From Armatimonadota bacterium (lineage in GTDB: Bacteria > Armatimonadota > Zipacnadia > Zipacnadales > UBA5352), in NCBI GenBank assembly GCA_034722055.1, contig JAYENL010000243.1:3059-67058 (forward strand): a DNA stretch of 64,000 nt, written 5' to 3'. Shown here in pieces: positions 42,701-60,255 of the stretch. The translations under genes were made by a program, and so were the position numbers. How positions within the stretch are numbered: position 1 is the stretch's first letter; each line of letters opens with the position of its first letter. The notes beneath the pieces were generated by a model, which did no database searches, was not told where the DNA came from, and was given only the letters and a program-made list of their open reading frames with translations.

Positions 42701-43816
42701 CCACAGCTCCCGGTCGCTGTGCGATGCGATCTCGCGCGCCTCCGCAATGATGTTCTCTGCGGCCTCGCGGACGCTCGGATGCTGCTGCATCCTCTGGCGG
42801 ACGCCGGCCATGTACCGCTCGGTGTAGATGGTGCGCTCGTCCTTCACCGGCCTGGCGTCAACCGGCAGATACTGGCGCGAGGGGTCCAGCCCGGCACAGG
42901 CCTCCGTGGAGAGATCGTTGGTAACGTAGAGCGCGTCCACGATGGCGTAGTCATCGATCCTCTGCACGATCTCCAGGGCCAGCCGGCTCACCGGCTGTGC
43001 AACCTCCACCACGCCGATCTCGTTCCAGCCGCTCCGCAGCGGCGTGAACTGCATTGACGCCTCGCCCAGCCGGACTCGCCCGATCCAGAACGTGTTCCCG
43101 GCGCGGGCGAACAGCTTGTAGCTCCCCGGCGGTAGCGGAGGGTCCACCTGCGTCCAGATCTCGCCCTCTCCACTGGTGTTGACCGCCGCCCGCAGCCTGG
43201 AGTGGGTGACCCGGGAGTACCACATCCAGCCATCGGCCAGCGACAGGTCCTCTCCCCGCCCGTCCATCCCCTCGAAGTCCTCGCACTCGTAGACGCGATG
43301 CACCTCTCCGGGCTTGAGCCTGCGCTGCGGCGGATTCGGCGGACGCTCCGGCAGCGGCGGGATGATCTCGATCTCCCCCAGCACGGTTGAGAGGTTGCTG
43401 CCCTCCTCGTCCACGTAGCGGACGTGCACCCACTGGCCTTCCCGCTTGTCGTAGTGGTCCACCGTCACGCGATAGGTGCCGGGCGCCGCGTCCTCGGGGA
43501 TCGGAACGCGGTAGAGCGCCCTCTTGGTCACCCCGAGCTCGTCCGCCGGCCCGAACAGCGCCCCCACAGGCCCATGGGTGATGCGACGGCCCTCGCCTGC
43601 CGGCGTGAGGTCTACGCCCACCCGCCAGCCATCGCGCAAAGGCTCCACCACCGAGAACCGGGCGGCGATAGGCACCGTCGCGCCTGCAGGCGCCCGCTCG
43701 GGGAGCAGGACCTCCTCCACACGTAGCACGTCGGCGGCGTGAGCCGCCGGAAGTGAGCATATCGCGGCCACCATCAGCGCGGGCGTCAGTCGTGGAGTGC
43801 TGCCGAGACTTGGCAT
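39725..43816 (-). CDS. Large (1363 aa) secreted heparinase II/III-like / alginate-lyase-family polysaccharide lyase with Cys4 zinc-ribbon-like insert
   Basis: Start at the internal signal peptide MPSLGSTPRLTPALMVAAICSLPAAHAADV; the first 321 codons of the track ORF are Arg-rich antisense shadow. Heparinase II/III motif SHAHSDSLLCGLAGRGLDLLPDLGYPKSWEHAGRWESHSLTHNTITVDGG. Cys motif CPICGLKIKEVSAFHPWILEPFEHPYKMQCPVCKRRF. Confidence 0.7.
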   Translation of the reverse strand: MPSLGSTPRLTPALMVAAICSLPAAHAADVLRVEEVLLPERAPAGATVPIAARFSVVEPLRDGWRVGVDLTPAGEGRRITHGPVGALFGPADELGVTKRALYRVPIPEDAAPGTYRVTVDHYDKREGQWVHVRYVDEEGSNLSTVLGEIEIIPPLPERPPNPPQRRLKPGEVHRVYECEDFEGMDGRGEDLSLADGWMWYSRVTHSRLRAAVNTSGEGEIWTQVDPPLPPGSYKLFARAGNTFWIGRVRLGEASMQFTPLRSGWNEIGVVEVAQPVSRLALEIVQRIDDYAIVDALYVTNDLSTEACAGLDPSRQYLPVDARPVKDERTIYTERYMAGVRQRMQQHPSVREAAENIIAEAREIASHSDRELWELLAPSTIRRTYYVNQNAGCPICGLKIKEVSAFHPWILEPFEHPYKMQCPVCKRRFPTNDFAAGEMTGGEYPDDGTGCTIDGETYYFLGEYTHWVYRTYFSPYLRTLAQAVALTDDRELAHKLSVMLLRGAQQWSNSEDRYQRSFEQRVGHRAGAITDRIWSSYEGRNYGWAYDAVFPFLDDDDELLALAREEIPQIQTHEDLRLYIEESLLRRIGQQYCDTAIQGNAGYHHRGIAWLLLALDDPDSERFPNCRDLLDFLYYRIYGALRYFANLIASDGSSFESTGYNASRLNMVEALDVLERYFAEQAPGLPRDRYPSLWDDPRFAAQFDYYTDYLLLDRWLPTIGDVGGNTVIPEHTEPQRLSVVGRDRAAQAWERYRNLPLAAKLARVAYGLEDRPPEPSLWSDLPLEELAKAREAAPDMLPRRTQVQDDYGLAFLRSGEGESRRVLWAWYGQLLSHAHSDSLLCGLAGRGLDLLPDLGYPKSWEHAGRWESHSLTHNTITVDGGKFPPGKQRGRLRALGTVPPDAILDGTPLLQFAQTETGDLTGEADVARRMLALVDIDEDDFYAVDLFDVRAGSEHVLSYHGPQAEVRVEGVELEAQETGTVAGPDVGYGEAVQSDGEERHTPLAHMTQVQRGEPAERFIIDYALGDEADTHVRLHQFPEAGASLALATGRPPSQPDAYRVRYSLLTRAGEAPLRGRYLTVVEPYLRQPALSQCSRLAGREFGEPQALRISHDRGADLLLLLPEAGREISGAGVEFRGRAALVRFAGGEPVAVTAYEFSHLDGPGFSLRADALAIEGEIAACDYAEQTVTAPGLPADERLVGQHVRIFNDLHSTMHRIVEVAQGRDGTRLQLSTSALRHEGWVAGVGQASVRDGAPSPWALGTFLAGTRLVNEDGTRSWTVRDAAGGWHSAPSGTRISLVPGPQVNAELLDKALVDANGDGSAGFRLCEYGAGDRLAIATWALLRRADDGTWRAVLSPTVSFEAH

Positions 43817-44260
43817 GGCGCCGTCGGGTTTCGCGCTGGTATCGCGCCTGACCTCTGAGGGCCCTGCGCCCTGCCTCATGCACCGCCTGCCGCTGCCGAA
43901 GCCGCAACCGCTCATGACCGACTGCCGGACCGACAGGGAACCGCGCCCTGCCGTACGGCCTGGCGGTAAGGCCGTGGAGGCGGAGTGGCCCGCACACGAA
44001 TGGCGTACGACAAACGGCCCGCCGGCTGGGCGCCCTCCCGTCCTCCTCGTCATGGGAGGCGGGCGCCCTCGCCCGCCTGCGGGCCGAAGGCCCGCTCTGA
44101 CGCGGCGGCGCGGCGAGAACGACTGGCGACACACGGCCGGCGGGTCTAAAGACGCCGCCGCTCCGGACGACAACGGCAGCGACTCGCAGGTGCGTGGACG
44201 GGTCCGGCGAAGGCACTGCAAGCGCGCCCAGAGGCATGATCGCAGGGAGAGCCGCGAACG

Positions 44261-45253
44261 ATGCCTGGGAACTGGGACTTCGCCGAGTTGGATGCGGAGA
44301 TCGCCGCGGACCTGAAGGGCTTCCTGCCGCCGCAACTGTTCGATGCTCACGCGCACCTGTATCGCATCGAGGACCTGCCGGAGGTCCCGCCGCTGATGCA
44401 GGAGGGCCCCGGCGACGCCACGCCCGATACCTGGCGAACGCACCTGGGCCGGCAGGTCGGAGAGGAGCGCATTACGGGCGCGCTCTTCATGCCCTTCCCG
44501 CTGCCCGGCGCTGACGTCGCGGCCCTCAATCGGCGGCTGATGGAGGACCTGGAGCGTGCCCCGGAGAGCCGCGGCGCGGTGCTGATCCCGCCCGACGGTG
44601 GCCCTGAGGCGCTGCAGGAGCCCCTCGAGCACCCCCGCGCGGTGGGCCTCAAGCCCTACCACAGCCTCATCGCACGCGAGAGTACCTTCGAGGCCGCGCT
44701 GGGGGAGTACCTGCCGCCGTGGGCGTGGCAGTTGGCGGATGAGCGTGGTCTGGTGATCGTCCTTCACCTGGTACGGCACGGAGCGCTCTCGGACCCGAGC
44801 AACCAGGAGCAGCTTCTCGCGATGTGCCGGCAGTTACCCGGCGCGCGTGTGCTGCTGGCCCATGCCGCCCGCGGCTTCCACGCCCCCAACACGGTCCGTG
44901 GGGTGGAGGCGATCGCGTCGCTGGAGAACGTCTGGTTCGACAGCTCGGGCATCTGCGAGGCCGCGCCGCTGGTGGCCGTGCTACAGACCTTCGGGCCGGA
45001 GCGGCTGTTGTGGGGCAGTGACTTCCCGGTCACCCAGATCCGGGGCCGCTGCGTCACCGTGGGCGACGGCTTCGCGTGGCTCGACCAGACGTCGGTGGAC
45101 TGGTCGGTCCTGAAGCCGCCGTGCAGGCCGACGCTGGTGGGGCTGGAGTCCCTCCGGGCCCTGCGCGAGGCCGTGCAGATCACTGGGCTGAGCAGCAGTC
45201 AGGTGCAGGACATCTTCCACGGCAATGCACGGCGGCTGTTCGAGCTTCCGTGA
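44261..45253 (+). CDS. Amidohydrolase-2 family TIM-barrel metal-dependent hydrolase
   Basis: LFDAHAHLY near the N-terminus, LLWGSDFPV near the C-terminus. SD GGGAGA 10 nt upstream. Confidence 0.7.
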   Translation: MPGNWDFAELDAEIAADLKGFLPPQLFDAHAHLYRIEDLPEVPPLMQEGPGDATPDTWRTHLGRQVGEERITGALFMPFPLPGADVAALNRRLMEDLERAPESRGAVLIPPDGGPEALQEPLEHPRAVGLKPYHSLIARESTFEAALGEYLPPWAWQLADERGLVIVLHLVRHGALSDPSNQEQLLAMCRQLPGARVLLAHAARGFHAPNTVRGVEAIASLENVWFDSSGICEAAPLVAVLQTFGPERLLWGSDFPVTQIRGRCVTVGDGFAWLDQTSVDWSVLKPPCRPTLVGLESLRALREAVQITGLSSSQVQDIFHGNARRLFELP

Positions 45254-45346
45254 CCCAACCTGCACGAAGCGGGCGACGCCGGTCGGCGCCGCCCTGAAAT
45301 CTGACACAACTGCCCGTGAGCGCCCACGCCCGGGCTGGTTCGGCAG

Positions 45347-45784
45347 CTACGGCACGGTCTCCTCGTCCACGTCGCACTCCTCGTCGGCCACGTCCTCGGT
45401 ACGCGTGTGCATCATGAACTTCTCGCGGGCGTCCTGGGCCAGCTCGAACTCACGCGAGAAGCTGATGGAGCCCTTGTGGCAGGAGTGCGCGCACTGCCCA
45501 CAGAATATACACCGATCCATCTCGAACTCCAGATGCCCCGTCAGCTCCTTGGTGCCGTCCTCCCTCTCAACACGCTTGCGCACGACCTTGATGACGTCGG
45601 CCGGGCAGTCCCGCTGGCACAGCCCGCACAGCGTGCACTCGCTGGAGTCGTACTGCAGCCGGCCCCGAAAGCGCTCCGGGGGCTCCAGGCGCTCCGCCGG
45701 ATACAGCACGGTCGCCCGCTTGCGCACCAGCAGGCTCTCCATCAGCTCCATGGCCATGGCCGCTATGCCGAATCGTCGAGGCAT
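45347..45784 (-). CDS. 2x[4Fe-4S] ferredoxin subunit (NuoI/MbhN-like) of the complex-I-like hydrogenase module
   Basis: Two CxxCxxCxxxCP motifs (CTLCGLCQRDCP; CIFCGQCAHSCH). Confidence 0.85.
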   Translation of the reverse strand: MPRRFGIAAMAMELMESLLVRKRATVLYPAERLEPPERFRGRLQYDSSECTLCGLCQRDCPADVIKVVRKRVEREDGTKELTGHLEFEMDRCIFCGQCAHSCHKGSISFSREFELAQDAREKFMMHTRTEDVADEECDVDEETVP

Positions 45785-45787
45785 TGT

Positions 45788-46768
45788 CTACACTCCCAGT
45801 TGGTGGACCATTACAGCGATGGCGCCGATGTTGATCAGGGCCGGAATGCCCAGCCACAGAAGGCACCACTGCACCATCTGCTCGATGCGCAGGCGGGCCA
45901 TGGCTGCCTGGGCCAGTGACAGGAAGAAGACGATCAGCAGGATCTTGACGCCCAGCACGATCATGCCGACGAGCCCCCCCACCCAGGGCCCCATGGCCTG
46001 GTAGGAGATACCCCAGAAGTCCGGGCCGCCCAGGAACAACGCTGCGATCAGGGCCGAGCCCACGATGGTCTCAGTCAGGAAGGTCAGCTTCCACACCGCC
46101 AGCCGCCGTCCGGTGTACTCCACCTCCGGACCCGAGACGATCTCCGTATTTGCCTGCGGGATGTCGAAGGGAACGCGCTCGAGCTTGCCGATCAGCGCGA
46201 CCATCGCCACGATGAAGCTCAGCGGGGCGAGGGCGATCAGCCAGTGACCTCCGAACTGCGCCAAGGTGACGTCACTGATCGACCAGCTTCCCGCCGCGAT
46301 GGCCGGTCCCAGGCAGGCCAGGAAGAAGGGCACCTCATAGCCGAAGAGCTGTGAGAGCACGCGCGTGGAGCCGATGGTGGCGAAGGGATTCGTGGAGTAC
46401 CAGCCGCCCAGGAAGAGCGCGAAGGCCGGCAGCGTCAGCAGATAGACGACCACGATCAGATCGCCCTGGAAGGACTCCACGGCCTCCGGGGCCCACACCG
46501 GGATGTAGACGATGGAGGCGATGACTCCCGCCAGCGCGATCAGCGGCGCCACCACGAACATCGTGCGGTTGGCGTGCTCGGGAACGATGTCCTCCTTGGC
46601 CAGCAGCTTGATCAGATCGGCAAGGGGCTGCAGGATGGGAGGGCCAACGCGGTTCTGGAACTTCGCGATCAGCTTGCGGTCCACCCAGGACGCGAAGAGC
46701 CCGAAGGCCACCAGGAACAGGAACCCCGGGAAGACCATGATGTGAAACAGCGGCCGCAGAACCTGCAT
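45788..46768 (-). CDS. Membrane subunit NuoH/MbhM-like
   Basis: Eight-TM protein with the NuoH signature …FQNRVGPPILQPLADLIKLLAKED…. Confidence 0.85.
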   Translation of the reverse strand: MQVLRPLFHIMVFPGFLFLVAFGLFASWVDRKLIAKFQNRVGPPILQPLADLIKLLAKEDIVPEHANRTMFVVAPLIALAGVIASIVYIPVWAPEAVESFQGDLIVVVYLLTLPAFALFLGGWYSTNPFATIGSTRVLSQLFGYEVPFFLACLGPAIAAGSWSISDVTLAQFGGHWLIALAPLSFIVAMVALIGKLERVPFDIPQANTEIVSGPEVEYTGRRLAVWKLTFLTETIVGSALIAALFLGGPDFWGISYQAMGPWVGGLVGMIVLGVKILLIVFFLSLAQAAMARLRIEQMVQWCLLWLGIPALINIGAIAVMVHQLGV

Positions 46769-46843
46769 TGCCGGTCCTCTCGTCTCCCGTAGACCCCGGG
46801 CGGCGCACGAGTAGGCTCTCGCGGCCCACCCGAGGGTGATGGC

Positions 46844-48007
46844 TTACTGCTGCCGGCCCAGCCTGACCAGCTCCGGCCAGGTCATGGTGCGGCTCTCGCC
46901 GGAGCCGACGTCATCGAGCACCACCATGCGATCGGTGCAGGAGAAGCATGGGTCGATCGACATGAAGGCGATGGGGATGTCGGCGACGTAGCCGCCGGTG
47001 ACCATCTCCATCGCCGCCGGAAGGTTGGCGAGGGTCGGCGTGCGGATCTTTACGCGCACCGGCACGTCGGAGCCGTCACTGCGCACGTAGTAGATCAGCT
47101 CCCCGCGCTGCGCCTCCACCCGCGCGGTGGCCTCTCCCTCCGGGACTCTCCTGGGGAACCTGGCCTGGATCTCGCCGTCCGGCATCTGGTCGAGGGCCTG
47201 CAAGCTAATATCGCAGGCCTCGACGACCTCCTGCACGCGCACCAGCGTCCGGCCCAGAACGTCGCACAGCTCCGAGGTGTAAACCTGCCAGTCCACCTGG
47301 TCGTACTGCAGATACGGGAACTCCGTGCGGATGTCGAAGCTGATTCCCGATGCCCGCAGCGTCGGCCCGGCCGCGCCCAGCTCCCGGCAGCGGTCGCCGG
47401 AGATCGTGCCCACATCTCTGACACGCTTGAGGAAGGTGGCCTCGGTGGTGCAGATGTCGGCGTAGTACTCCGCACGCTCCCGCAGAATCTGCAGGCCCTC
47501 GCGGATGCGGGCCTCCATCTCCGGGGTGATGTCATAGCGCACCCCGCCGAGGGTGGTCATGGCGTAGTGCCCCCGATTGCCCGAGACCATCTCCAGGATG
47601 TCCTGGATGATCTCCCGATCCCGCCACACGTACATCAACAGGGACTCGAAGCCGACCTCGTAGCCCGACACCCCCAGCCACAGCAGATGGCTGTGGATGC
47701 GCTCGAACTCGTGCACTATCATTCGGATGTACTGGGCGCGCACAGGCACCTCCACCTCGGTCAGCTTCTCCACCGCCATGCAGTAGGCCAGGGTATGGGC
47801 GTTGGAGCAGATCCCGCACACGCGCTCACACAGGTAAAGGTCCTGGACGTAGTTGCGCTCCGAACAGCTTCGCTCAATGGAACGGTGCACGTATCCGAGC
47901 CTGATGTCCGCGTCCACCACCAGCTCACCATCGACGCTGAAGCGCAGGTTCTCGGGCTCCTTCAGTGCAGGGTGCTGGGGGCCGACGGGGAACGAGAGCT
48001 TAGCCAT
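46844..48007 (-). CDS. [NiFe]-hydrogenase large subunit, group 4 (NuoD homologue retaining all four Ni-Fe cysteine ligands)
   Basis: L1 motif ERVCGICSNAHTLAY and L2 motif SIDPCFSCTDR, followed by a ~27-aa C-terminal tail. Start MAKLSFPVGPQHP overlaps the upstream stop by 8 nt (ATGGCTAA). SD GGAGGA. Confidence 0.8.
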   Translation of the reverse strand: MAKLSFPVGPQHPALKEPENLRFSVDGELVVDADIRLGYVHRSIERSCSERNYVQDLYLCERVCGICSNAHTLAYCMAVEKLTEVEVPVRAQYIRMIVHEFERIHSHLLWLGVSGYEVGFESLLMYVWRDREIIQDILEMVSGNRGHYAMTTLGGVRYDITPEMEARIREGLQILRERAEYYADICTTEATFLKRVRDVGTISGDRCRELGAAGPTLRASGISFDIRTEFPYLQYDQVDWQVYTSELCDVLGRTLVRVQEVVEACDISLQALDQMPDGEIQARFPRRVPEGEATARVEAQRGELIYYVRSDGSDVPVRVKIRTPTLANLPAAMEMVTGGYVADIPIAFMSIDPCFSCTDRMVVLDDVGSGESRTMTWPELVRLGRQQ

Positions 48008-48473
48008 TGTCCTCCTCGTCCTCACGGTCCGTGGGGCGCTCATCACGCCGCAACGGATAGTCGCCCTCCGGCCAGTCCTCCGGCAGCACCAGCCTGCGAG
48101 GGTCGGGGTGACCGATCATCTCCACTCCCAGCATCTCGGCGACCTCGCGCTCGTACAGCACGGCCGCGGGCACCAGAGGCGTGATGGAGTCGATCTCGTC
48201 AACGCCCTTGTCCACCGCGGCCCGCACGTTCAGGGCCAGCCCGCCGGTGACGAAATGATACAGCACCTCGATCTGCCGGCCGGTGTCAACACCGGTGATG
48301 GTAGACAGGTAAACCGGCGCCCAGGTGTCTATGATGAACCGGGCCATTCCCCGCACGTCCTCGGGCGGCACCCCCACCCACGCATCCACCTCCGAGGTCG
48401 CCTCCGCCTCCGTCAGCTCACCATCGTACTCGGCCTGGATCCGCTCGACCAGCTCGCTGGCAGTCACAGCCAT
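48000..48473 (-). CDS. NuoC/MbhK-like 30-kDa subunit
   Basis: …ITGVDTGRQIEVLYHF…LYEREVAEMLGVEMIGHPDPRRLVLPEDW…. Confidence 0.8.
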   Translation of the reverse strand: MAVTASELVERIQAEYDGELTEAEATSEVDAWVGVPPEDVRGMARFIIDTWAPVYLSTITGVDTGRQIEVLYHFVTGGLALNVRAAVDKGVDEIDSITPLVPAAVLYEREVAEMLGVEMIGHPDPRRLVLPEDWPEGDYPLRRDERPTDREDEEDNG

Positions 48474-48496
48474 CGGTTCTCCTTGCGACGCAGTCC

Positions 48497-49033
48497 CTAG
48501 TGCCCGGCCTCCTCGAGGTGGTCGCGCTGCTGGGCCATCTCCTCCGGCGTGTAGATGAGCCCGGCGGTGTCCCGGGTGGCCTCGATCCTCTCCACCAGCC
48601 TCCGGGCCTGGGGGTCGAGGGCGGCCAGGAGCTTGAGGACCCCGTAGGAGATGGCATCCGGCCGGGCGGGGCAGCCGGGCACGTACATGTCCACGGGGAT
48701 GGCCGCGTCCACGCCGCCCAGCACGTTGTAGCCGGGGTAGTACGGGCTGCCCGAGATGCCGCAGGTGCCCACACAGACTACGAACTTGGGCTCCGCCATC
48801 TGCTCGTAGACCCGCACCACACGGTCCTTGATCTGCCGGGTCACCGGCCCGGTGGCCAGCAGCAGATCGGCGTGTCGGGGACTGCCCTCCAGCAGCACCC
48901 CGAAGCGCTCCAGATCGAATCGGGGCATCAGCGCCGCCACGATCTCTATGTCACAGCCGTTACAGGACCCGCAGTTGAGATGGCAGATCCAGGGGCTCTT
49001 CCCCCGCGCCCATTTCAAGACTCCGCTCCACAT
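48497..49033 (-). CDS. Hydrogenase small subunit / NuoB-like (proximal [4Fe-4S] cluster subunit)
   Basis: CHLNCGSCNGCDIE…VVCVGTCGISGSPYY…YVPGCPARPD (four Cys ligating the N2-type cluster). Confidence 0.85.
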   Translation of the reverse strand: MWSGVLKWARGKSPWICHLNCGSCNGCDIEIVAALMPRFDLERFGVLLEGSPRHADLLLATGPVTRQIKDRVVRVYEQMAEPKFVVCVGTCGISGSPYYPGYNVLGGVDAAIPVDMYVPGCPARPDAISYGVLKLLAALDPQARRLVERIEATRDTAGLIYTPEEMAQQRDHLEEAGH

Positions 49034-49091
49034 GCTGATTATCCTCTGTCCCCGAGGCCGACGGCCGTCGATCCAGCGCGCCCCCTCGCGC

Positions 49092-49433
49092 TTAATCCTT
49101 GAACAGAATCACAATCGCTACCAGGCCCACCACGATGTAGGCGCCAAGCAGCCACAGCAGCGCCGTCCTGGCGACCGTCCCGATGACCAGCGCCACCACG
49201 TCGAGCAGCGTGAAGATGAAGGCCGCGTGGAACAGGTGGTAGGCGGTCGGGAATGCGTCCGCCTCCAGGTGCTCTCCGCAGGCGTAGGTCTCGAGCTTCC
49301 CGCCCACCACCCGCGAGGCGGGAGCCACCGCCCGACCCAGGGCGTACAGCAGCAGCCCGCATACCACGCTCAGCCCGAAGACCGTCACGGGATGATACAG
49401 CACTCCGGATGCCGTCATACGTGCGCCCTCCAT
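49092..49433 (-). CDS. NuoA/MbhI-like small membrane subunit
   Basis: Three TM helices and a KLETYACG motif resembling the NuoA YECG motif. Confidence 0.7.
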   Translation of the reverse strand: MEGARMTASGVLYHPVTVFGLSVVCGLLLYALGRAVAPASRVVGGKLETYACGEHLEADAFPTAYHLFHAAFIFTLLDVVALVIGTVARTALLWLLGAYIVVGLVAIVILFKD

Positions 49434-49512
49434 CCGGCCCCGGCGCCGCCTCTAGGACACCGCCGTCGAAGGTAAAGTTCACCGATATGGTTGAGTTCGC
49501 CTGACGCCATCC

Positions 49513-50997
49513 CTACAACCCCGCAATCATGGCCACGAGCTGCTCGGCAGCCGGGTCCACGAGCTCCAGTCCAATCTGCGGATACACTCCCAGCAGCACC
49601 GAGGCGGCAGCCAGCACCACGATGGGCAAGGCGATCAGGAAGGGCAGGGGGCTGACCGTCCTGCGCTCATCGGGCTCCGGGCCGAAGACGACGGTGTTCA
49701 CCGCGCCAAGGTAGTAGAAGAGCGATATGACGCTGTTGAGGACCAGCATCGCGGCCATGAAGATGCCCCAGCCGCCCACGTCGGCGCCGGCCCTCACCAG
49801 CAGCAGCTTGCTGAAGAAGCCGTTGAACGGCGGCGTGCCCGCCAGCGCCAGCGCGAAGATCAACAGGCACACCGCCACCACGGGGAAGCGGCGGCCGATG
49901 CCCGACAGCTTGCGCATGTCGCGGGTCCCCAGCAGGAACAGGAAGGCGCCCGCACACAGAAAGGCGCCGCCCTTCATAATGGCGTGGTTGAGGATGTGAT
50001 ACAGCGCGCCCCGCATCCCGCTGTAGGCCGCCAGCGTCGGGAAGCCCAGGGCCAGCCCCACGCCCATGAAGATGTAGCCCATCTGGGCCACCGACGAGTA
50101 GGCGAACATGCGCTTGAGGTCGTTCTGCCGCAGCGCCACCAGGTTGCCCACGAACATGGTGAGCAGCGCCAGGATGACCAGCAACATGCCGGTCTGGATG
50201 GCGCTGATGGCGATGAGCACCTTCACCATGGCGATCAGCCCGGCCTCGATGACGATGCCCGAGAGCATCGCGGAGATGCCGCTGGGGGCGGCGGAGTGGG
50301 CGTCGGGCAGCCAGGTGTGCATGGGCACGATGGCCGCCTTCACGCCGAAGCCCGCCAGAATCATGGCCGTCAGGGCCATCATGGGGCTGGTATCCAGGCG
50401 CTCCGCCAGCAGTCCCGGGATCTTCACCAGGTCCAGGCTTCCGCTGTAGGTGAAGATGATGGCGATTGCCAGCAGGGCCAGCAGCGAGCCGGTGGTGCTG
50501 ATGACCAGGTACTTCACACCGGCCTCCACCGGCTCCCACTCGTCGCGCTCGAAGGCCACCAGCACGTAGCTGGCCACGCTCATGACCTCGAAGACCACGT
50601 AGAGCGTGAAGAGGTCCCCAGCGAAGCCGATCCCAACGATCCCGGCGGTCATGATCAGCAGCAGGGCGTAGAACTTGCCGATGTTGCGCCGGTGCATGTA
50701 GCGCATGGAGTAGATGGCCACCAGCGCCGACAGCATCAGCGTGGTCGTGGCCAGGAAGACCCCCAGGTGATTGCCGGTGAGATAGCTCTCGAAGGGATGC
50801 ACCGCCCGGGAGCCCGGCCAGCCGACCGTCATGTCCTGTCCCAGGATGCCCCACACCTGGTAGACGGCGTGCCCCGCGCCCACCACCGCCAGGAAGGCCA
50901 CCAGCCCGGTCAGCATTCGGCTCCGCGACAGCCGCCCCACAACGTAGGCAGACAGGGCGCCGCCGGAGAGAATCACTATGGGAAGCAGCACTTCCAT
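49513..50997 (-). CDS. Antiporter-like subunit (NuoN/NuoM/MrpD family)
   Basis: About 14 TM helices. Proton-antiporter-M signature …TWLPDAHSAAPSGISAMLSGIVIEAGLIAM…. Confidence 0.8.
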   Translation of the reverse strand: MEVLLPIVILSGGALSAYVVGRLSRSRMLTGLVAFLAVVGAGHAVYQVWGILGQDMTVGWPGSRAVHPFESYLTGNHLGVFLATTTLMLSALVAIYSMRYMHRRNIGKFYALLLIMTAGIVGIGFAGDLFTLYVVFEVMSVASYVLVAFERDEWEPVEAGVKYLVISTTGSLLALLAIAIIFTYSGSLDLVKIPGLLAERLDTSPMMALTAMILAGFGVKAAIVPMHTWLPDAHSAAPSGISAMLSGIVIEAGLIAMVKVLIAISAIQTGMLLVILALLTMFVGNLVALRQNDLKRMFAYSSVAQMGYIFMGVGLALGFPTLAAYSGMRGALYHILNHAIMKGGAFLCAGAFLFLLGTRDMRKLSGIGRRFPVVAVCLLIFALALAGTPPFNGFFSKLLLVRAGADVGGWGIFMAAMLVLNSVISLFYYLGAVNTVVFGPEPDERRTVSPLPFLIALPIVVLAAASVLLGVYPQIGLELVDPAAEQLVAMIAGL

Positions 50998-51001
50998 GAC
51001 T

Positions 51002-52732
51002 CTATCCCCAGCCCAGCCACATCAGCAGGACGGCCACGAAGCCGATGGCCAGCCACAGGCTGTTGTAGTTGAGATCGCCGGTCTGGCAGAGGCTGATCAG
51101 GGACGCCACCGCCCGCATCATCACCGCCCAGAAGCCCCAGAACCAGTCGAAGAGGCCCTTGGTGTCGGTCAGCAGGTCCGCCCACATCTGGGGCCCCTCC
51201 GGCACCGGAGGCTGTGTTCGTGACCACCGCACGCCCAGCCACACCAGGATCAGCACCACCACCGCACCCACGGTGATCATTGGGCTTATGAAGGTGTGGC
51301 GGCACAGCTCCCCGAGCCCGATGCGCGGCACGCTGTGGAAGGGAAGCTGCAGACCGAGAGCGCTGGAGTAGCCGCCGACGTAGAGCCACGAGAGCAGCGT
51401 GCCTGCCGCCAGCGCCACCAGCGGGCTTGTCATCTCCCATGGGGACTCATGCGGCTCGGCCTCCCGTCGCGGCTCGGCCTGAAAGGTCAGCCAGTACATG
51501 CGCCAGGAGTAGATCGCGGTCAGGAAGGCGGTGACGATGAGGATGGTAAGCGGGCCGGTAAGCCCCTTCTGTAGCAGGGCCTCGAAGATGGCGTCCTTGG
51601 ACCAGAAGCCGTTGAGCAGCGGCACCCCGGCCAGCGCGAGGGTCCCGATGAGGAATGTCCAGTGCGTGACCGGCATGGAGCGTCTCAGCCCACCCATGCG
51701 GTACATGTTGTTGGTGTGTACCGAATGGATGACCGAGCCGGCGCACAGGAACAGGAGGGCCTTGAAGATGGCGTGGTTGAGCAGATGGAACTGGCTGGCG
51801 AAGACGCTGGCGGCGCCCACGCCGGCCATCATGTAGCCGAGCTGTGAGATGGTGGAGAACGCCAGCACGCGCTTGATGTCCCTCTCCATCAGGGCCAGGA
51901 TGGCCGTGAGCACCGCGCTGATGGCGCCGATCCAGGCCAGCGCCGGCAGCCACCATGCCACGTACTCGAACAGCGGCATGGTGCGGGCAGTCAGATACAC
52001 GCCCGCGTTGACCAGCGTGGCGGCGTGAATCAGGGCGCTGATGGTGGTGGGGGCCTCCATGGCGTCCGGCAGCCACACATGCAGCGGGAACTGCGCCGAC
52101 TTGCCCACCGCCCCGGCGATGAAGCCCGCCCCGGCAATCGCCAGCAGCCCCATGGGGATCTCCCCGCCCGCCGCAGCCGTGATGGTCTCCGTGATGCTAA
52201 AGGGGTTGTCCGAGCCGATCCGGCTCATCGCCGACCACAGCACCACCACGCCTATCAGCAGGCCGATATCGCCGAAGCGGGTGACGATGAAGGCCTTGGT
52301 CCCGGCCCGCCGCGCCCTCTCCCGCCGATACTCGTAGGCGATCAGAGCGAAGGAGCAGAAGCCGATGATCTCCCAGAAGATGTAGAGCACCAGGAAGTTA
52401 TCCGACAGCGCCAGGGCGATCATGGAGCCAACGAACAGCAGCGTCAGGAAGTAGTAGCGCGTGGGCGCGTACTGCTCCTCCAGCGGCTCCATGTATCTGA
52501 TGGAGTAGAGGAGCGCCAGGGCTCCGATGCAGCCCGCGATGGCGGCCACGTAGACGCCGATGCCGGTGAGCTGCAGGGCGATCTGGGCCTTGAGGTCCGG
52601 GATCCACCAGACGCTGGCCGGGGCCTCCTGCCCGCCGGCGGCGAGCACCAGAGCCACCGTCAGGCCGGCGGTCACGAAGCCGACGGCCACGGTGTACCAC
52701 TTCATCAGCCACTCGTTAACGCGTCCCAGCAC
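51002..52732 (-). CDS. Antiporter-like subunit (NuoL/MrpA family)
   Basis: …VWLPDAMEAPTTISALIHAATLVNAGVYL…NHAIFKALLFLCAGSVIH…. The start may be M10 (52705). Confidence 0.8.
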   Translation of the reverse strand: MLGRVNEWLMKWYTVAVGFVTAGLTVALVLAAGGQEAPASVWWIPDLKAQIALQLTGIGVYVAAIAGCIGALALLYSIRYMEPLEEQYAPTRYYFLTLLFVGSMIALALSDNFLVLYIFWEIIGFCSFALIAYEYRRERARRAGTKAFIVTRFGDIGLLIGVVVLWSAMSRIGSDNPFSITETITAAAGGEIPMGLLAIAGAGFIAGAVGKSAQFPLHVWLPDAMEAPTTISALIHAATLVNAGVYLTARTMPLFEYVAWWLPALAWIGAISAVLTAILALMERDIKRVLAFSTISQLGYMMAGVGAASVFASQFHLLNHAIFKALLFLCAGSVIHSVHTNNMYRMGGLRRSMPVTHWTFLIGTLALAGVPLLNGFWSKDAIFEALLQKGLTGPLTILIVTAFLTAIYSWRMYWLTFQAEPRREAEPHESPWEMTSPLVALAAGTLLSWLYVGGYSSALGLQLPFHSVPRIGLGELCRHTFISPMITVGAVVVLILVWLGVRWSRTQPPVPEGPQMWADLLTDTKGLFDWFWGFWAVMMRAVASLISLCQTGDLNYNSLWLAIGFVAVLLMWLGWG

Positions 52733-52804
52733 CGGAACGAGCAGGCAGCCGCCAAGCGGGATGATGACCGTCAGCAGTGCCAGCAGCTCAGTGGACGTAG
52801 CACC

Positions 52805-53101
52805 TCACCCCTTCAGCCGCCTCAGAGCCGTGATGCTCAGGCTCCGGTTGTGGTGATAGGCGGCAACCACCAGGGAGAGTGCGATTGCCACGGTGACGGC
52901 CTCAATGAGGATGCTGGTGATGACTACGGCCTGGGCGGCGGACATGCTCCCGGTCTGGGCGCCGCCGATGATGAACACCAGGGACACGCCCCGGGCCATG
53001 ACCTCCAGGCCGATGACCAGTTGCAGCAGGTTCGTGCGCGTGATGGTGGCGTAGAGGCCGATGACCAGGAGGGCGATGCCGACGGCCGCGTAGGGACTCA
53101 T
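52805..53101 (-). CDS. NuoK/MrpC-like small membrane subunit
   Basis: Start at internal MSPYAAVGIALLVIGLYATITRTNLLQLVIGLEVMARGVS… (NuoK/MnhC signature). Shares one nucleotide with the upstream stop (TGATG). The upstream 66 codons of the track ORF are discarded. Confidence 0.7.
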   Translation of the reverse strand: MSPYAAVGIALLVIGLYATITRTNLLQLVIGLEVMARGVSLVFIIGGAQTGSMSAAQAVVITSILIEAVTVAIALSLVVAAYHHNRSLSITALRRLKG

Positions 53102-53325
53102 CAGCGCTCTATCCTCTCCTTGGTCAACACCAGCACGCCGAAGGTCCCCGCCAGGATCGCCAGCATCTGACCGATGAGGTCCACCGCGCGGTTGCTCCAG
53201 AGCATCTCCCGGAAGGGCGTGGTCGCCTCCCCCAGGCCCCGGAGCGAGGCCACATCGGAGAGGAAGATCACCGTGAGGCCCACCAGTATGGCAACACACA
53301 GCACGAAGCCGCCGAACCTAGTCAC
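53101..53325 (-). CDS. Small 2-TM membrane subunit (MrpB/MrpG/MbhE-like)
   Basis: 74 aa and hydrophobic. Translationally coupled to the flanking genes by overlaps. Confidence 0.5.
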   Translation of the reverse strand: MTRFGGFVLCVAILVGLTVIFLSDVASLRGLGEATTPFREMLWSNRAVDLIGQMLAILAGTFGVLVLTKERIER

Positions 53326-53605
53326 TCTGCTCCCTCGCCTCCGTGAGCGCGATCACCGCCAGGAACAGCACGGTGATGAAGCCCGCGCAGACGCTCAGCT
53401 CGAACATCGCCGCCCACGGCGCGCCAAAGCGGTAGAACAGCGCCGCCAGGATAGCGGACAGCACCGCCAGCGCCAGCGCGCCCTTGAGCAGGTCCCGCAG
53501 ATGAATCGCCAGGACGGCCAGCACCACGACCAGGCCCAGAGCAACCCAGTCGAGAACCTGGATCGCTTCCATTACACGAACCGCCTCACTTGCCTGCGCC
53601 GCCAC
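53318..53605 (-). CDS. Small 3-TM membrane subunit (MrpF/MbhD-like); first gene of the operon
   Basis: 95 aa with three hydrophobic helices. 8-nt overlap with the next gene. Confidence 0.5.
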   Translation of the reverse strand: MAAQASEAVRVMEAIQVLDWVALGLVVVLAVLAIHLRDLLKGALALAVLSAILAALFYRFGAPWAAMFELSVCAGFITVLFLAVIALTEAREQSD

Positions 53606-53957
53606 GGCGGCGCCGAGCCGGAATTGGCGTGGCTGACACGAGAAGTCTCCATGTCCTGCGGCATGGTGTCACCCCTCAGGCACATGGAGAGCAGCATCCC
53701 GCGTCCCGAGATTGAGTGCTGTCTCTGTGACGGACACGCGCCGCGGGCATTCGCCGGCCGCCGCCCGCGCACCTTCCCGCCGCCCGAAACTGCCCGGCGC
53801 TTCCCCGGCCGGACCAGCGCCGAGTCCTCCGCCACTCTCCCACCCTCACCGGAAGGACGGGGCCCATGCTCCGATGCAGCCGCTACTGGGCACCCTCCTG
53901 CCCAGTGGCAGGAGTTTGCGGATTATGCAGCGTCGCGGTGCCTCTGCTGCTGCCATG

Positions 53958-54035
53958 GAGGGGCCGCCGCGAGCGAAGCGAACGGGGCGCGGTCAGGAGC
54001 AGTAGCGACTGACCGCGCAGGTTCCACCCCGGCCC
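53958..54035 (+). repeat. Partial copy (both ends, shortened middle) of the conserved intergenic repeat
   Basis: ggaggggccgcc…gagcgaagcgaacgggg…gcaggttccaccccggccc. Its 3' end faces the 3' end of the full reverse copy at 54069..54205, forming an inverted pair. Confidence 0.5.
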
Positions 54036-54068
54036 ACGTCTCTTGATTGCGTGAAACGGCAGGCGCCC

Positions 54069-54205
54069 GGGCCGGGGTGGAACCTTCGGCCTGCTCGCTA
54101 CCCTCACAGGCCTCACCGGGCGCTGCACGCCCGGCGGCCCCTCCACCAGGCACCCCCTCATTTCCAACGCAACCAAGCCCCGAGTGTGCTCGTCGTTAAC
54201 CATAC
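54069..54205 (-). repeat. Copy C (reverse orientation) of the ~140-nt conserved intergenic repeat
   Basis: Its reverse complement aligns over about 137 nt with copies A and B, including the hairpin ccgggcgtgcagcgcccgg (U-G wobble). Sits immediately 3' of ackA and about 450 nt 5' of the hydrogenase operon. Confidence 0.6.
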
Positions 54206-54220
54206 GCGGAATTGCCCAAG

Positions 54221-55447
54221 TCAGCACTCCTGCGCCGAGAGCACCTCCATGGTGTCTCGGGCGATCATCAGCTCCTCGTCCGTCTGGATGACCAGCAGGT
54301 GCCCGGGGGCGTCATCCATGCCGATGGGGGCGATGCCGTCGTCGTACTGCAGATCGCTGAGGTTCCTGTCGGGGTCCTCTACGATGCCCAGGTGCTCCAG
54401 GCCCTGCACGCACCAGCGGCGCTGGAGGTGATCGTTCTCGCCAATTCCTCCCGTAAGAACCACGCAGTCGAGTCCCTCCAGGACTGCGGCGTAGGCGCCG
54501 ATGTACTTGCGGACCTTGTAGGCGAACAGGTCCAGGGTCAGCCGGGCCCGGTCATTGCCCCCGGCGGCCGCGGACTGGATGTCTCGCATATCGTTGCTCA
54601 CTCCCGACAGCCCCAGCAGGCCGCTGTGCTTCTGCAGCATGTGGTCGATCTCGTCGAGGCTCATCCCCAGATTCTGGGCCATGTAGAGGACGATCGCCGG
54701 GTCGATGTCCCCACAGCGTGTGCCCATCACCAGGCCCTCCAGCGGCGTGTACCCCATGGTGGTGTCGATGCACTCCCCGGCCTTCACCGCCGCCATGGAA
54801 CAGCCGTTGCCGAGATGGCAGGTGACGATCTTGTGGTCCTCGACGGGGATGCCCTGCTCCTGGAGGTACTGCCCGGCGCGCAGCGAGACGTAGCGGTGGG
54901 AGGTGCCGTGGAAGCCGTAGCGCCGGATGCCGTGCTCAGCGTACATCTCCCAGGGCAGCCCGTAGACGAAGGCGTGCGGGGGCATGGTCTGGTGGAAGGC
55001 GGTGTCGAAGACCGCCACGTGCGGGACGTGGGGCAGCAGCTCGCGTGCCGCCTGAATGCCCAGCAGGTTGGGCGGATTGTGCAGCGGCGCCAGCTCGCCG
55101 AAGCGGTCGATGGCAGCCTCGACGTCCTCGTCGATGAGCACGGAGCTGGCGAACTCCTCGCCGCCGTGCACCACGCGGTGGCCGACCGCATCGATCTCCT
55201 CCAGGGAGCCGATCACCCCGTGTTCGTCGTCAGTCATCACGTCCACGGCCTGCCCCAGAGCGACCCTGTGGTCGGGCATCTCCACGTCCTGCTCGAAGGT
55301 CCGGCCATCGTGGGTCTCGTGCTCGATGTTCGCGCCCTCGGTGCCCAGCCGCTCGCAGAGGCCGTTCGCCAGCGACTGCTCCCTTTCCATGTCGTAGAGC
55401 TCGTACTTGAGGGAAGAGCTGCCACAGTTCACGACCAGAACGTTCAC
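54221..55447 (-). CDS. ackA: Acetate kinase
   Basis: GTG start giving (M)NVLVVNCGSSSLKYELY…, preceded by SD GGAGGT 6 nt upstream. Motifs VHGG, GTSHRY, EVAAGTE-like. The first 75 codons of the track ORF are discarded. Confidence 0.85.
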   Translation of the reverse strand: MNVLVVNCGSSSLKYELYDMEREQSLANGLCERLGTEGANIEHETHDGRTFEQDVEMPDHRVALGQAVDVMTDDEHGVIGSLEEIDAVGHRVVHGGEEFASSVLIDEDVEAAIDRFGELAPLHNPPNLLGIQAARELLPHVPHVAVFDTAFHQTMPPHAFVYGLPWEMYAEHGIRRYGFHGTSHRYVSLRAGQYLQEQGIPVEDHKIVTCHLGNGCSMAAVKAGECIDTTMGYTPLEGLVMGTRCGDIDPAIVLYMAQNLGMSLDEIDHMLQKHSGLLGLSGVSNDMRDIQSAAAGGNDRARLTLDLFAYKVRKYIGAYAAVLEGLDCVVLTGGIGENDHLQRRWCVQGLEHLGIVEDPDRNLSDLQYDDGIAPIGMDDAPGHLLVIQTDEELMIARDTMEVLSAQEC

Positions 55448-59964: not shown

Positions 59965-60255
59965 GATCACTGGTACCTCGTGCGAGATCGAATGATGCTG
60001 TACCGCCGACGCCGTCGGCGGGCCCCGTCGTACGCACGCGATGACCTCGAAGGAGGCCGCCGCCCGGGCGAGGAAGTGCCTGCAGTGGAGGCGGGTGTGC
60101 GAGTCGAACGCACCCGGGGATCGATGCGCTGATCCCCGCCGCGGATTTGCAGTCCACGGGGGACACCGGTCCCGTCCCCGCCCAGTCAAGAAAACGGTTC
60201 GCGACAAAGCGTTGTTCCCCTGTCTGACTCGGCACAGGATTGAGGAGGCATTCCA

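Follow-up and report, generated by a model that had tools for sequence, protein, structure and literature searches.

An operon that resembles respiratory complex I, and whose NuoD homologue keeps the cysteines of a Ni-Fe site, raises the question of whether it encodes a hydrogenase and, if so, of what kind. We addressed this question for eleven co-directional genes on the minus strand (45347-53605) of a 64,000-nucleotide stretch of high-GC DNA (65-74%) from an Armatimonadota bacterium (GenBank contig JAYENL010000243.1); the whole stretch is called the window here. The gene set was taken from a list of open reading frames (ORFs) together with a filter on GC content by codon position, protein families were assigned with Pfam and NCBIfam, and the subunits were compared with solved structures by phmmer alignments to PDB chains. 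All eleven genes were recovered (ORF list, Pfam and NCBIfam) on the strand, in the order and at the coordinates that an earlier note on this DNA had given; in Mbh nomenclature they read mbhD-E-G-[NuoL-type]-H-I-J-K-L-M-N. The gene set is not a chance pattern, because the operon proteins gave strong family matches and the set is repeated in dozens of genomes. We conclude that the operon probably encodes a membrane-bound [NiFe]-hydrogenase of group 4, energy-converting and built of 11 subunits, in an anaerobic, saccharolytic member of the Armatimonadota; the enzyme would oxidise ferredoxin, evolve H2 and translocate ions.

The evidence that carries this conclusion lies in the large subunit, which contains RVCGICSNAH (L1) and DPCFSCTDR (L2) and ends in a 27-residue C-terminal extension. 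The earlier note had taken the CGIC and CFSC cysteines for the L1 and L2 Ni-Fe ligands and had held that true complex I lacks these motifs. Residue-for-residue alignment bore out both statements. L1 and L2 matched, column for column, ERMCGICSFSH and DPCLSCTDR of MbhL (6cfw_L) and DRVCGICGFAH and DPCYSCTDR of HycE (7z0s_E), and Nqo4 of Thermus has PRMDYLHSFAH and DPVMGDVDR at these positions. Among PDB chains, MbhL gave 292 bits (43% identity), HycE 249 bits (36%) and Nqo4 224 bits (35%). The four cysteines, C64, C67, C354 and C357, were invariant in 31 homologues with 50-92% identity. The residues that follow the last DR aligned with the tail of HycE, which is cleaved by HycI once Ni is inserted.

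An AlphaFold2 (AF2) model of the large subunit had a predicted local distance difference test (pLDDT) score of 85, and Foldseek matched it to HycE and MbhL with template modelling (TM) scores of 0.84-0.87. A fold search with the same model gave TM scores of 0.82-0.87 to hydrogenases and NuoD alike, so it is the ligand motifs, and not the fold, that discriminate between the two. The reading of the protein as 400 aa from a GTG codon is probably too long. Its sequence is identical (100%) to NCBI MEA3402782.1, 'MAG: nickel-dependent hydrogenase large subunit [Armatimonadota bacterium]' (MAG, metagenome-assembled genome), and the feature is therefore already public as an annotated hydrogenase.

The large subunit has thousands of homologues, and a pattern scan with one genome per GTDB species confirmed at least 594 relatives. 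We used 83 relatives to check the motifs of the large subunit and the 80 best loci among the at least 594 relatives to compare gene order. When cysteine conservation was examined, as the earlier note had proposed, the four ligands were invariant across the 83 relatives, all of which have R[IV]CGIC and DPCxxCxxR (83/83); the C-terminal extension is kept in 80/83. These numbers bear on the possibility that the operon encodes a non-hydrogenase relative of complex I (Ehr/Mbx/Fpo-like, or a ferredoxin:quinone oxidoreductase) that has retained the cysteines, or a hydrogenase that is inactive without maturation genes. Several subunits do score best against the NCBIfam models for NuoL, NuoH, NuoD and NuoB, the 64-kb window has no hyp genes, and the operon of one Armatimonadota relative (L004/L005) carries a paralogous module without the cysteines. 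Such an enzyme is nevertheless hardly credible here, since the four ligands, the flanking R, H and DP...DR and the protease-dependent extension are strictly conserved in many phyla, HycI and HypA/B genes are physically linked to the operon in relatives, and the hydrogenase motif replaces the Q-site residues of Nqo4.

The small subunit led to the same assignment as a hydrogenase. Its PDB matches were MbhJ (168 bits), HycG (132 bits) and PSST (about 115 bits), and its GSCNGCDIE, GTCGISG and PGCP segments aligned with MbhJ and HycG, giving the four Cys of a single proximal [4Fe-4S] cluster, with a cluster motif identical to that in MbhJ; the full four-Cys set that the earlier note had described is thus present. 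The NuoI-like translation holds CTLCGLCQRDCP and CIFCGQCAHSCH, two CxxCxxCxxxC motifs, and this subunit is presumed to be the site of ferredoxin docking and electron entry. The NADH-oxidising module is absent, as had been claimed: no NuoE, NuoF or NuoG was found by Pfam among all coding-like ORFs of the 64 kb. With Pfam and NCBIfam, no input module of the formate dehydrogenase (Fdh), carbon monoxide dehydrogenase or NuoEFG kind was found in the operon or the window; by default, the donor would then be ferredoxin, as it is for Mbh and Ech.

The operon holds, beside these catalytic subunits, two Proton_antipo_M proteins and a NuoH-like anchor. The 494-aa antiporter-like subunit was closest to MbhH (6cfw_H, 265 bits), followed by MbsH (187), NdhB (165) and MrpD (164), and its top NCBIfam model was the Pyrococcus-type MrpD/MbhH family. 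The NuoL-type subunit matched NdhF (303 bits), Nqo12 (280), NuoL (261), MrpA (229) and MbhH (155); it differs in kind from the other subunits of the operon in being nearest to complex I and NDH-1 proteins. An AF2 model of this subunit, built on 33 homologues (pLDDT 84, predicted TM score 0.87), contains, beyond a 14-helix core, a 32-residue helix (516-547) and a terminal helix (554-575). Foldseek aligned the model over its full length to MrpA, NuoL, Nqo12 and NdhF, and the root-mean-square deviation was lower to MrpA. According to the model, the NuoL-type subunit would bear an anchor helix at its C-terminus and, before it, a short lateral helix (HL), which is predicted with moderate confidence. 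E121, K211, H236 and K324, the conserved Glu/Lys/His/Lys of antiporter-like proteins, are invariant, and together with the full-length match of the model to MrpA and NuoL they support ion translocation by the NuoL-type subunit.

The start of the NuoL-type gene deserves comment. A conserved N-terminal helix of the protein (LLALLTVIIPLGGCLLVP) is encoded 5' of the first ATG, GTG or TTG codon (52732), within 52733-52804, and this upstream coding stretch is in frame with the TGA stop of nuoK. Homologues start with Met where the window has a CTG near 52786, and the gene likely starts at this CTG; the public calls of 567-576 aa for genes of this type are probably truncated. A read-through fusion of NuoK and NuoL was rejected, because the frame relation is lost in L004 and the homologues begin with Met there, which makes a rare start codon the simpler explanation.

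Of the small membrane subunits, those of 113 aa and 74 aa are assigned through homologues and position. The MbhD/NuoJ-like protein also matched Oxidored_q3 (30.6 bits) and the NCBIfam models for DUF4040 and the MrpA C-terminal region. It has 95 aa when read from a GTG and 84 aa from an ATG at 53572, like the closest relative; an 84-aa homologue in relative L002 is 91% identical. The 74-aa membrane protein encoded next to it had no match in Pfam, NCBIfam or the PDB sequence search and is kept at the same position in most related loci with 37-60% identity. On position only, it would be MbhE-like, that is, equivalent to the C-terminal half of NuoJ. The 113-aa protein gave no direct Pfam or PDB match. 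Its 75%-identical homologue in L002 has a weak match to Oxidored_q4 (19.1 bits), and that in L006 scores above the cut-off (27.9 vs 23.3 bits). By transfer from these homologues the protein is probably NuoA-like, and its YACGE loop resembles the YECG motif of NuoA. The NuoH-like subunit was practically tied between Nqo8 (119.6 bits) and MbhM (118.7 bits) in the PDB search. No MbhA/B/C/F (MrpE/F/G/B-type) genes were found in the operon with Pfam and NCBIfam, or among the coding-like ORFs of the window.

These results bear on the type of the enzyme. It is a group-4 energy-converting [NiFe]-hydrogenase of a complex-I-like variant, and not a canonical Mrp-Mbh (4d) enzyme, because the MrpE/F/G/B-type genes are absent and an extra NuoL/NdhF-type subunit is present. 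The earlier note had proposed an Mbh-type, Mrp-linked, 4d-like complex. The relation to Mbh stood, through the matches to MbhL, MbhJ and MbhH and through the gene order; 'Mrp-linked/4d' turned out to be too specific.

The membrane-bound hydrogenase (MBH) of P. furiosus (MbhA-N; PDB 6CFW; HydDB 4d) is the best solved match for the large subunit, the small subunit and one antiporter-like subunit. It shares the L1/L2 and small-subunit motifs, and the operon is colinear with mbhD-E-G-H-I-J-K-L-M-N. MBH uses ferredoxin as donor without a NuoEFG module, and the operon also lacks NuoEFG. Unlike MBH, the operon is without MbhA/B/C (MrpE/F/G-like) and MbhF, the putative Na+ module of MBH, and it has the NuoL/NdhF-type subunit between the G-like and H-like genes, which gives two antiporter-like subunits and not one. 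The large subunit here carries a C-terminal extension, whereas the deposited MbhL chain stops at the DR motif. MBH has a single antiporter-like subunit with the lateral helix on MbhI, MrpA has a short lateral helix, and the peripheral arm is attached at different places in MBH and the membrane-bound sulfane reductase (MBS) than in complex I (PMC8165549).

Complex I and cyanobacterial NDH-1 (11 core subunits, NuoA-D and H-N) share their subunit families with the operon. The NuoL-type subunit scores above the cut-off of the NDH_I_L model, is nearest to NdhF, Nqo12 and NuoL, and has the predicted lateral and terminal helices, and electrons would enter through a ferredoxin-type subunit without NuoEFG, as in NDH-1. 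In contrast to complex I, the NuoD homologue has Ni-Fe ligands where the quinone-site residues sit, there are two antiporter-like subunits and not three, NuoJ is split into two small genes, and the lateral helix has about 32 residues, enough for one neighbouring subunit. We suggest, tentatively and with some doubt, a true complex-I topology, with an H-A/J/K-N-L arm clamped by the lateral helix of L, for the 11-subunit enzyme and for its relatives of 12-13 subunits, three of them antiporter-like.

Two recent papers present the complex-I-like architecture of group-4 hydrogenases as new in Asgard archaea (Valentin-Alvarado et al. 2024, PMC11291895; Appler et al. 2024, bioRxiv 10.1101/2024.07.04.601786). 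The latter work proposed groups 4j-4q and described NuoBCDI as present and NuoEFG as missing in a 'catalytically active [NiFe]-hydrogenase'; a complex-I-like, ferredoxin-to-H2 reading has been proposed for these homologues (PMC11291895; bioRxiv 10.1101/2024.07.04.601786). The enzyme studied here is similar in its peripheral arm, limited to NuoB/C/D/I, in its NuoD with Ni-Fe cysteines, in its L-like subunit with HL (modelled here, with moderate confidence), and in its two antiporter-like subunits, which make an arm shorter than that of complex I. It differs in its bacterial host and in that the operon is not linked to Hdr or ATP-synthase genes.

The large, small, NuoH-like and ferredoxin-like subunits are also homologous to those of the E. 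coli formate hydrogenlyase (FHL) complex (Hyc; PDB 7Z0S; 4a) and of Ech (4e), and in the alignment the large-subunit extension lies opposite the tail that HycI removes from HycE. Unlike FHL, the operon has no FdhH, HycB or HycF, NuoC is not fused to the large subunit, and the identity to HycE is 36%. Ech has six subunits (EchA-F) with one small antiporter-like protein; the operon has eleven genes with two large antiporter-like proteins.

In the literature, relatives are labelled 4g or 4b, not 4d. The Zipacnadia MAG AB_3033_Bin_184 was scored with one 4g and one 4b enzyme (PMC10290634), and Bathyarchaeia relatives were typed 4g, that is, ferredoxin-coupled, H2-evolving and membrane-linked. Group 4g is described as loosely defined and polyphyletic, and 4b/4d as paraphyletic. 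The 4g clusters discussed in PMC13582414 resemble Ech2 of T. kivui, and the typical 4b clusters there contain an Fdh subunit and HyfE/HyfC-like subunits, which the operon lacks. Reports of group-IV 'Mbh' enzymes in Chloroflexi genomes go back to 2013 (PMC3971608), and group 4g and 4b enzymes have already been reported in Armatimonadota. The kind of enzyme is therefore already known, and this operon is one more member, from a phylum with group-4 enzymes on record.

Among the 80 best loci, the bacterial ones came from Armatimonadota, Chloroflexota, Aminicenantes, Acidobacteriota, Elusimicrobiota, Bacillota, Omnitrophota, Planctomycetota, Spirochaetota and Caldisericota, and the Chloroflexota carriers include the cultured Longilinea arvoryzae and Leptolinea tardivitalis. 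Archaeal loci came from Bathyarchaeia, Jordarchaeia (L019, 53% identity) and others. The layout of the window, J-K-L-N-(A)-B-C-D-H-I, was found in 13/80 loci, including Armatimonadota and Anaerolineae; 43/80 have a layout with three antiporter-like genes first, and the remainder are partial or split. A bootstrapped neighbour-joining (NJ) tree was built from the 83 relatives with MbhL, HycE and Nqo4, rebuilt from PDB alignments, as the only references. The Armatimonadota formed a clade (94%), HycE and Nqo4 fell outside the family, and an archaeal sister group had 31% bootstrap only. The earlier note had named a grouping with the non-hydrogenase Ehr/Fpo clades as one outcome that would speak against a hydrogenase; the enzyme did not fall with the Cys-less Ehr, Fpo and Nuo proteins.

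One Armatimonadota relative with a 60% identical large subunit (L004/L005, 6515-9045) has a second NuoB-NuoC-NuoD'-NuoI' module within the operon. Its D' protein is without all four Ni-Fe cysteines and reads DRLCVLEPLAW... and ...NPCPADMDR. In this locus hypA-hypB lie just downstream, and the true large subunit is without the C-terminal extension. From these sequences, a hydrogenase module and a non-hydrogenase (Ehr/Mbx-like) module appear to share one set of membrane-arm genes.

The extension of the large subunit raises the question of maturation. A HycI protease gene lies directly 3' of the NuoI-like gene in 48/80 related loci, including Longilinea and Leptolinea; the HycI assignment was confirmed by Pfam (PF01750) on four examples. 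The Armatimonadota clade of the window has no HycI gene directly downstream and yet keeps the C-terminal extension. Flanking hypA and/or hypB genes were seen in about eight related loci, one of them an Armatimonadota relative with hypA-hypB just downstream of the operon. By column count in the supplementary tables of PMC10290634, AB_3033_Bin_184 has hypABCDEF and hycI, and its locus (L008) has a 74% identical large subunit and the same gene order. The maturation functions (Hyp and a HycI-type protease) must presumably be encoded elsewhere in the genome studied here.

We then considered the direction in which the enzyme would work. Acetate kinase (ackA) is the next gene upstream, as the earlier note had reported, and the order rsmD-coaD-x-ackA-hydrogenase is kept in L002/L003. 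The link to ackA is kept in a relative with 81% identity, in which pyruvate formate-lyase (PFL) and its activase are encoded about 3 kb upstream of the operon; in the closest relatives with long contigs, PFL and its activase precede the conserved order. Elsewhere in the window are genes for GH123-like, GHL10, beta-helix, Laminin_G_3/CBM, TPR and ExbB/ExbD/TonB-like proteins, for an ABC exporter and a GFO/IDH oxidoreductase, and for several proteins without a family match; the neighbourhood is saccharolytic. The adjacency of ackA, the PFL and activase of the relative, and the polysaccharide-degrading neighbours fit a fermenter, in agreement with the fermentative, H2-evolving setting that the earlier note had suggested.

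This setting argues against the reverse reaction, in which the same enzyme would use H2 oxidation and an ion gradient to drive ferredoxin reduction. Such a role has been proposed for enzymes of the Ech/Eha type in certain methanogens and autotrophs. Group-4 hydrogenases are in principle reversible, and some related Armatimonadota have Wood-Ljungdahl genes (PMC10290634). We regard this direction as unlikely, given the saccharolytic, acetogenic-fermentative neighbourhood (ackA, many glycoside-hydrolase-like genes and, in a relative, PFL) and a window in which no carbon-fixation gene was found. The PFL and activating enzyme of the 81%-identical relative, and the formate-coupled group 4b enzymes reported in Armatimonadota, could also point to an FHL-like system, in which a formate dehydrogenase encoded apart from the operon would oxidise the formate from PFL and feed the hydrogenase. 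The operon and window have no Fdh, no extra HycB/HycF-like ferredoxin and no HyfE-like subunit, however, NuoC and the large subunit are separate proteins, the latter resembles MbhL more closely than HycE, and PFL is not in the window; coupling to formate is thus very unlikely.

For the ferredoxin-dependent, H2-evolving hydrogenase that we favour, we infer the electron donor, the direction, the pumped ion, the stoichiometry, the membrane arrangement and the maturation. The sequences and models themselves show which subunits are present, the metal ligands, the tail of the large subunit, the conservation and synteny, the linkage to maturation genes in relatives, and the additional L-type subunit with helices at its C-terminus. 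Reduced ferredoxin from the fermentative oxidation of pyruvate or other oxo-acids would dock on the NuoI-like subunit. Electrons would pass through its two clusters and the single NuoB-like [4Fe-4S] cluster to the Ni-Fe site of the NuoD-like subunit, ligated by C64, C67, C354 and C357, where protons would be reduced to H2. The free energy would be transmitted by the NuoH-, NuoA-, NuoJ- (split) and NuoK-like subunits to the MbhH-type and NuoL-type antiporter-like subunits, which would export H+ (possibly Na+), and the lateral and anchor helices of the NuoL-type subunit may clamp the neighbouring antiporter-like subunit. The large subunit would be made as a precursor, whose 27-residue tail is probably cut by a HycI-type protease after Hyp-dependent metal insertion.

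Several observations weigh against this proposal. No hyp, hycI, pyruvate:ferredoxin oxidoreductase or ferredoxin genes were found by Pfam among the coding-like ORFs of the 64-kb window, and tblastn with HypA, HypB and HycI of relatives found nothing there, so that the absence of hyp and endopeptidase genes noted earlier was borne out. MbhL attaches inside the family or beside it in the NJ tree, with a bootstrap of 24-65%. The lateral-helix segment (516-547) of the NuoL-type model has a pLDDT of just 50-68, and the direction and ion specificity are assigned by analogy. A promoter and terminator scan of 45000-54400 gave no signal beyond shuffled expectation, and the transcription unit is therefore inferred from gene spacing alone. 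In the literature, we found no biochemically characterised or purified member of the 11-subunit subtype.

Table 1. Positions, in the window, of the eleven operon genes and of the neighbouring gene upstream.
Feature	Position	Strand	Evidence or remark
Small membrane subunit 1, MbhD/NuoJ (N-terminal half)-like	53318..53605	-	Pfam MbhD PF13244, 33.9 bits (cut-off 27.2)
Small membrane subunit 2, 74 aa, MbhE position	53101..53325	-	8-nt start overlap with preceding stop
NuoK/MbhG/MrpC-like, 98 aa	52805..53101	-	Pfam Oxidored_q2, 62.1 bits; NCBIfam MrpC/NuoK models
NuoL/NdhF/Nqo12-type antiporter-like subunit, 576 aa	51002..52732	-	TIGR01974 NDH_I_L, 435.7 bits (cut-off 407.5)
MbhH/MrpD/NuoN-like antiporter-like subunit, 494 aa	49513..50997	-	Pfam Proton_antipo_M, 220 bits
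NuoA/MbhI-like small membrane subunit, 113 aa	49092..49433	-	Homologues and position
Hydrogenase small subunit (NuoB/MbhJ-like), one [4Fe-4S] cluster	48497..49033	-	Pfam Oxidored_q6, 96 bits
NuoC/MbhK-like, 157 aa	48000..48473	-	Pfam Complex1_30kDa, 95.5 bits
Hydrogenase large subunit (NuoD/MbhL-like), 387 aa	46844..48007	-	Pfam Complex1_49kDa and NiFeSe_Hases
NuoH/MbhM-like membrane anchor, 326 aa	45788..46768	-	Pfam NADHdh, 253 bits
NuoI/MbhN-like 2x[4Fe-4S] ferredoxin-type subunit, 145 aa	45347..45784	-	Pfam Fer4_7, Fer4 and Fer4_9
Acetate kinase, upstream neighbour (context, not part of the complex)	54221..55441	-	Pfam Acetate_kinase, 494 bits

The positions of the genes are collected in Table 1. 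The ten junctions measure, 5' to 3' along the operon, -8, -1, +72, +4, +79, +58, +23, -8, +75 and +3 nt. Nearly all of them had been thought to overlap; the measured gaps give overlaps at 3/10 junctions and near-abutments at 2/10, so the operon is compact, yet translational coupling is not uniform. The NuoK-like gene starts in a TGATG junction with a 1-nt overlap with the 74-aa gene, the stop of the NuoC-like gene and the start of the large subunit overlap by 8 nt (ATGGCTAA), and the NuoK/NuoL-like gap of +72 shrinks to about +18 with the likely upstream NuoL start. Between ackA and the first hydrogenase gene is a 615-nt spacer (53606-54220) with no convincing ORF, which measures about 290 nt in the closest relative; searches for promoter-like signals and Rfam families gave no match in it.

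Other features of the window were recorded as well. After exbB/exbD-like genes on the plus strand, 22673-25537 encodes a 954-aa protein with an N-terminal membrane helix, a very long Pro/Ala/Gly-rich low-complexity stretch (local GC peak 0.74) and a structured C-terminal domain; it may be TonB-like or membrane-tethered. Two coding-like ORFs on the minus strand, 39725-44779 (about 1,500-1,680 aa) and 57262 to about 60000 (about 900 aa), had no Pfam match at E <= 1e-4 / 0.01.

A 97-nt tRNA lies at 60086-60183 on the minus strand. It scored 59.4 bits against the Rfam tRNA-Sec model (gathering score 47), and ARAGORN called it tRNA-Cys (anticodon GCA). Its anticodon loop is CUGCAAA, its variable arm is long and its D-loop has 4 nt; in the ARAGORN register a U discriminator precedes an encoded CCA. 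A 'SelC* tRNA-Cys' class with such hallmarks was described by Mukai et al. (PMC5389517), where Armatimonadota are not listed, and related tRNAs have been reported in Armatimonadota (PMC13582414); by its sequence the 97-nt tRNA fits this class. Recoding of the active-site UGC codons was considered and rejected, because the RNA 3' of the CGIC codons folds no better than shuffled sequences (z = +1.8); no fold resembling a selenocysteine insertion sequence was found after the active-site UGC codons. A link between the tRNA-Cys and such recoding was rejected also because the tRNA is not syntenic with the hydrogenase operon in relatives.

For this genome, the finding points to an anaerobic fermenter that would release reducing equivalents as H2 and add to its ion-motive force, and it bears on how the ecology of Armatimonadota is read, with H2 produced for syntrophic partners. 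As a single case, the operon adds one more family member and opens no new question. The set of group-4 enzymes to which it belongs is very large and for the most part uncharacterised; their membrane arm is nearer to complex I than are those of Mbh, FHL and Ech, and a structure of such an enzyme would bear on how complex I arose from hydrogenases. If the complex-I topology is true, these enzymes would link Mbh-type hydrogenases with complex I as a living intermediate, widespread in bacteria and not an Asgard speciality, and available in cultured Anaerolineae for a first biochemical and structural study.

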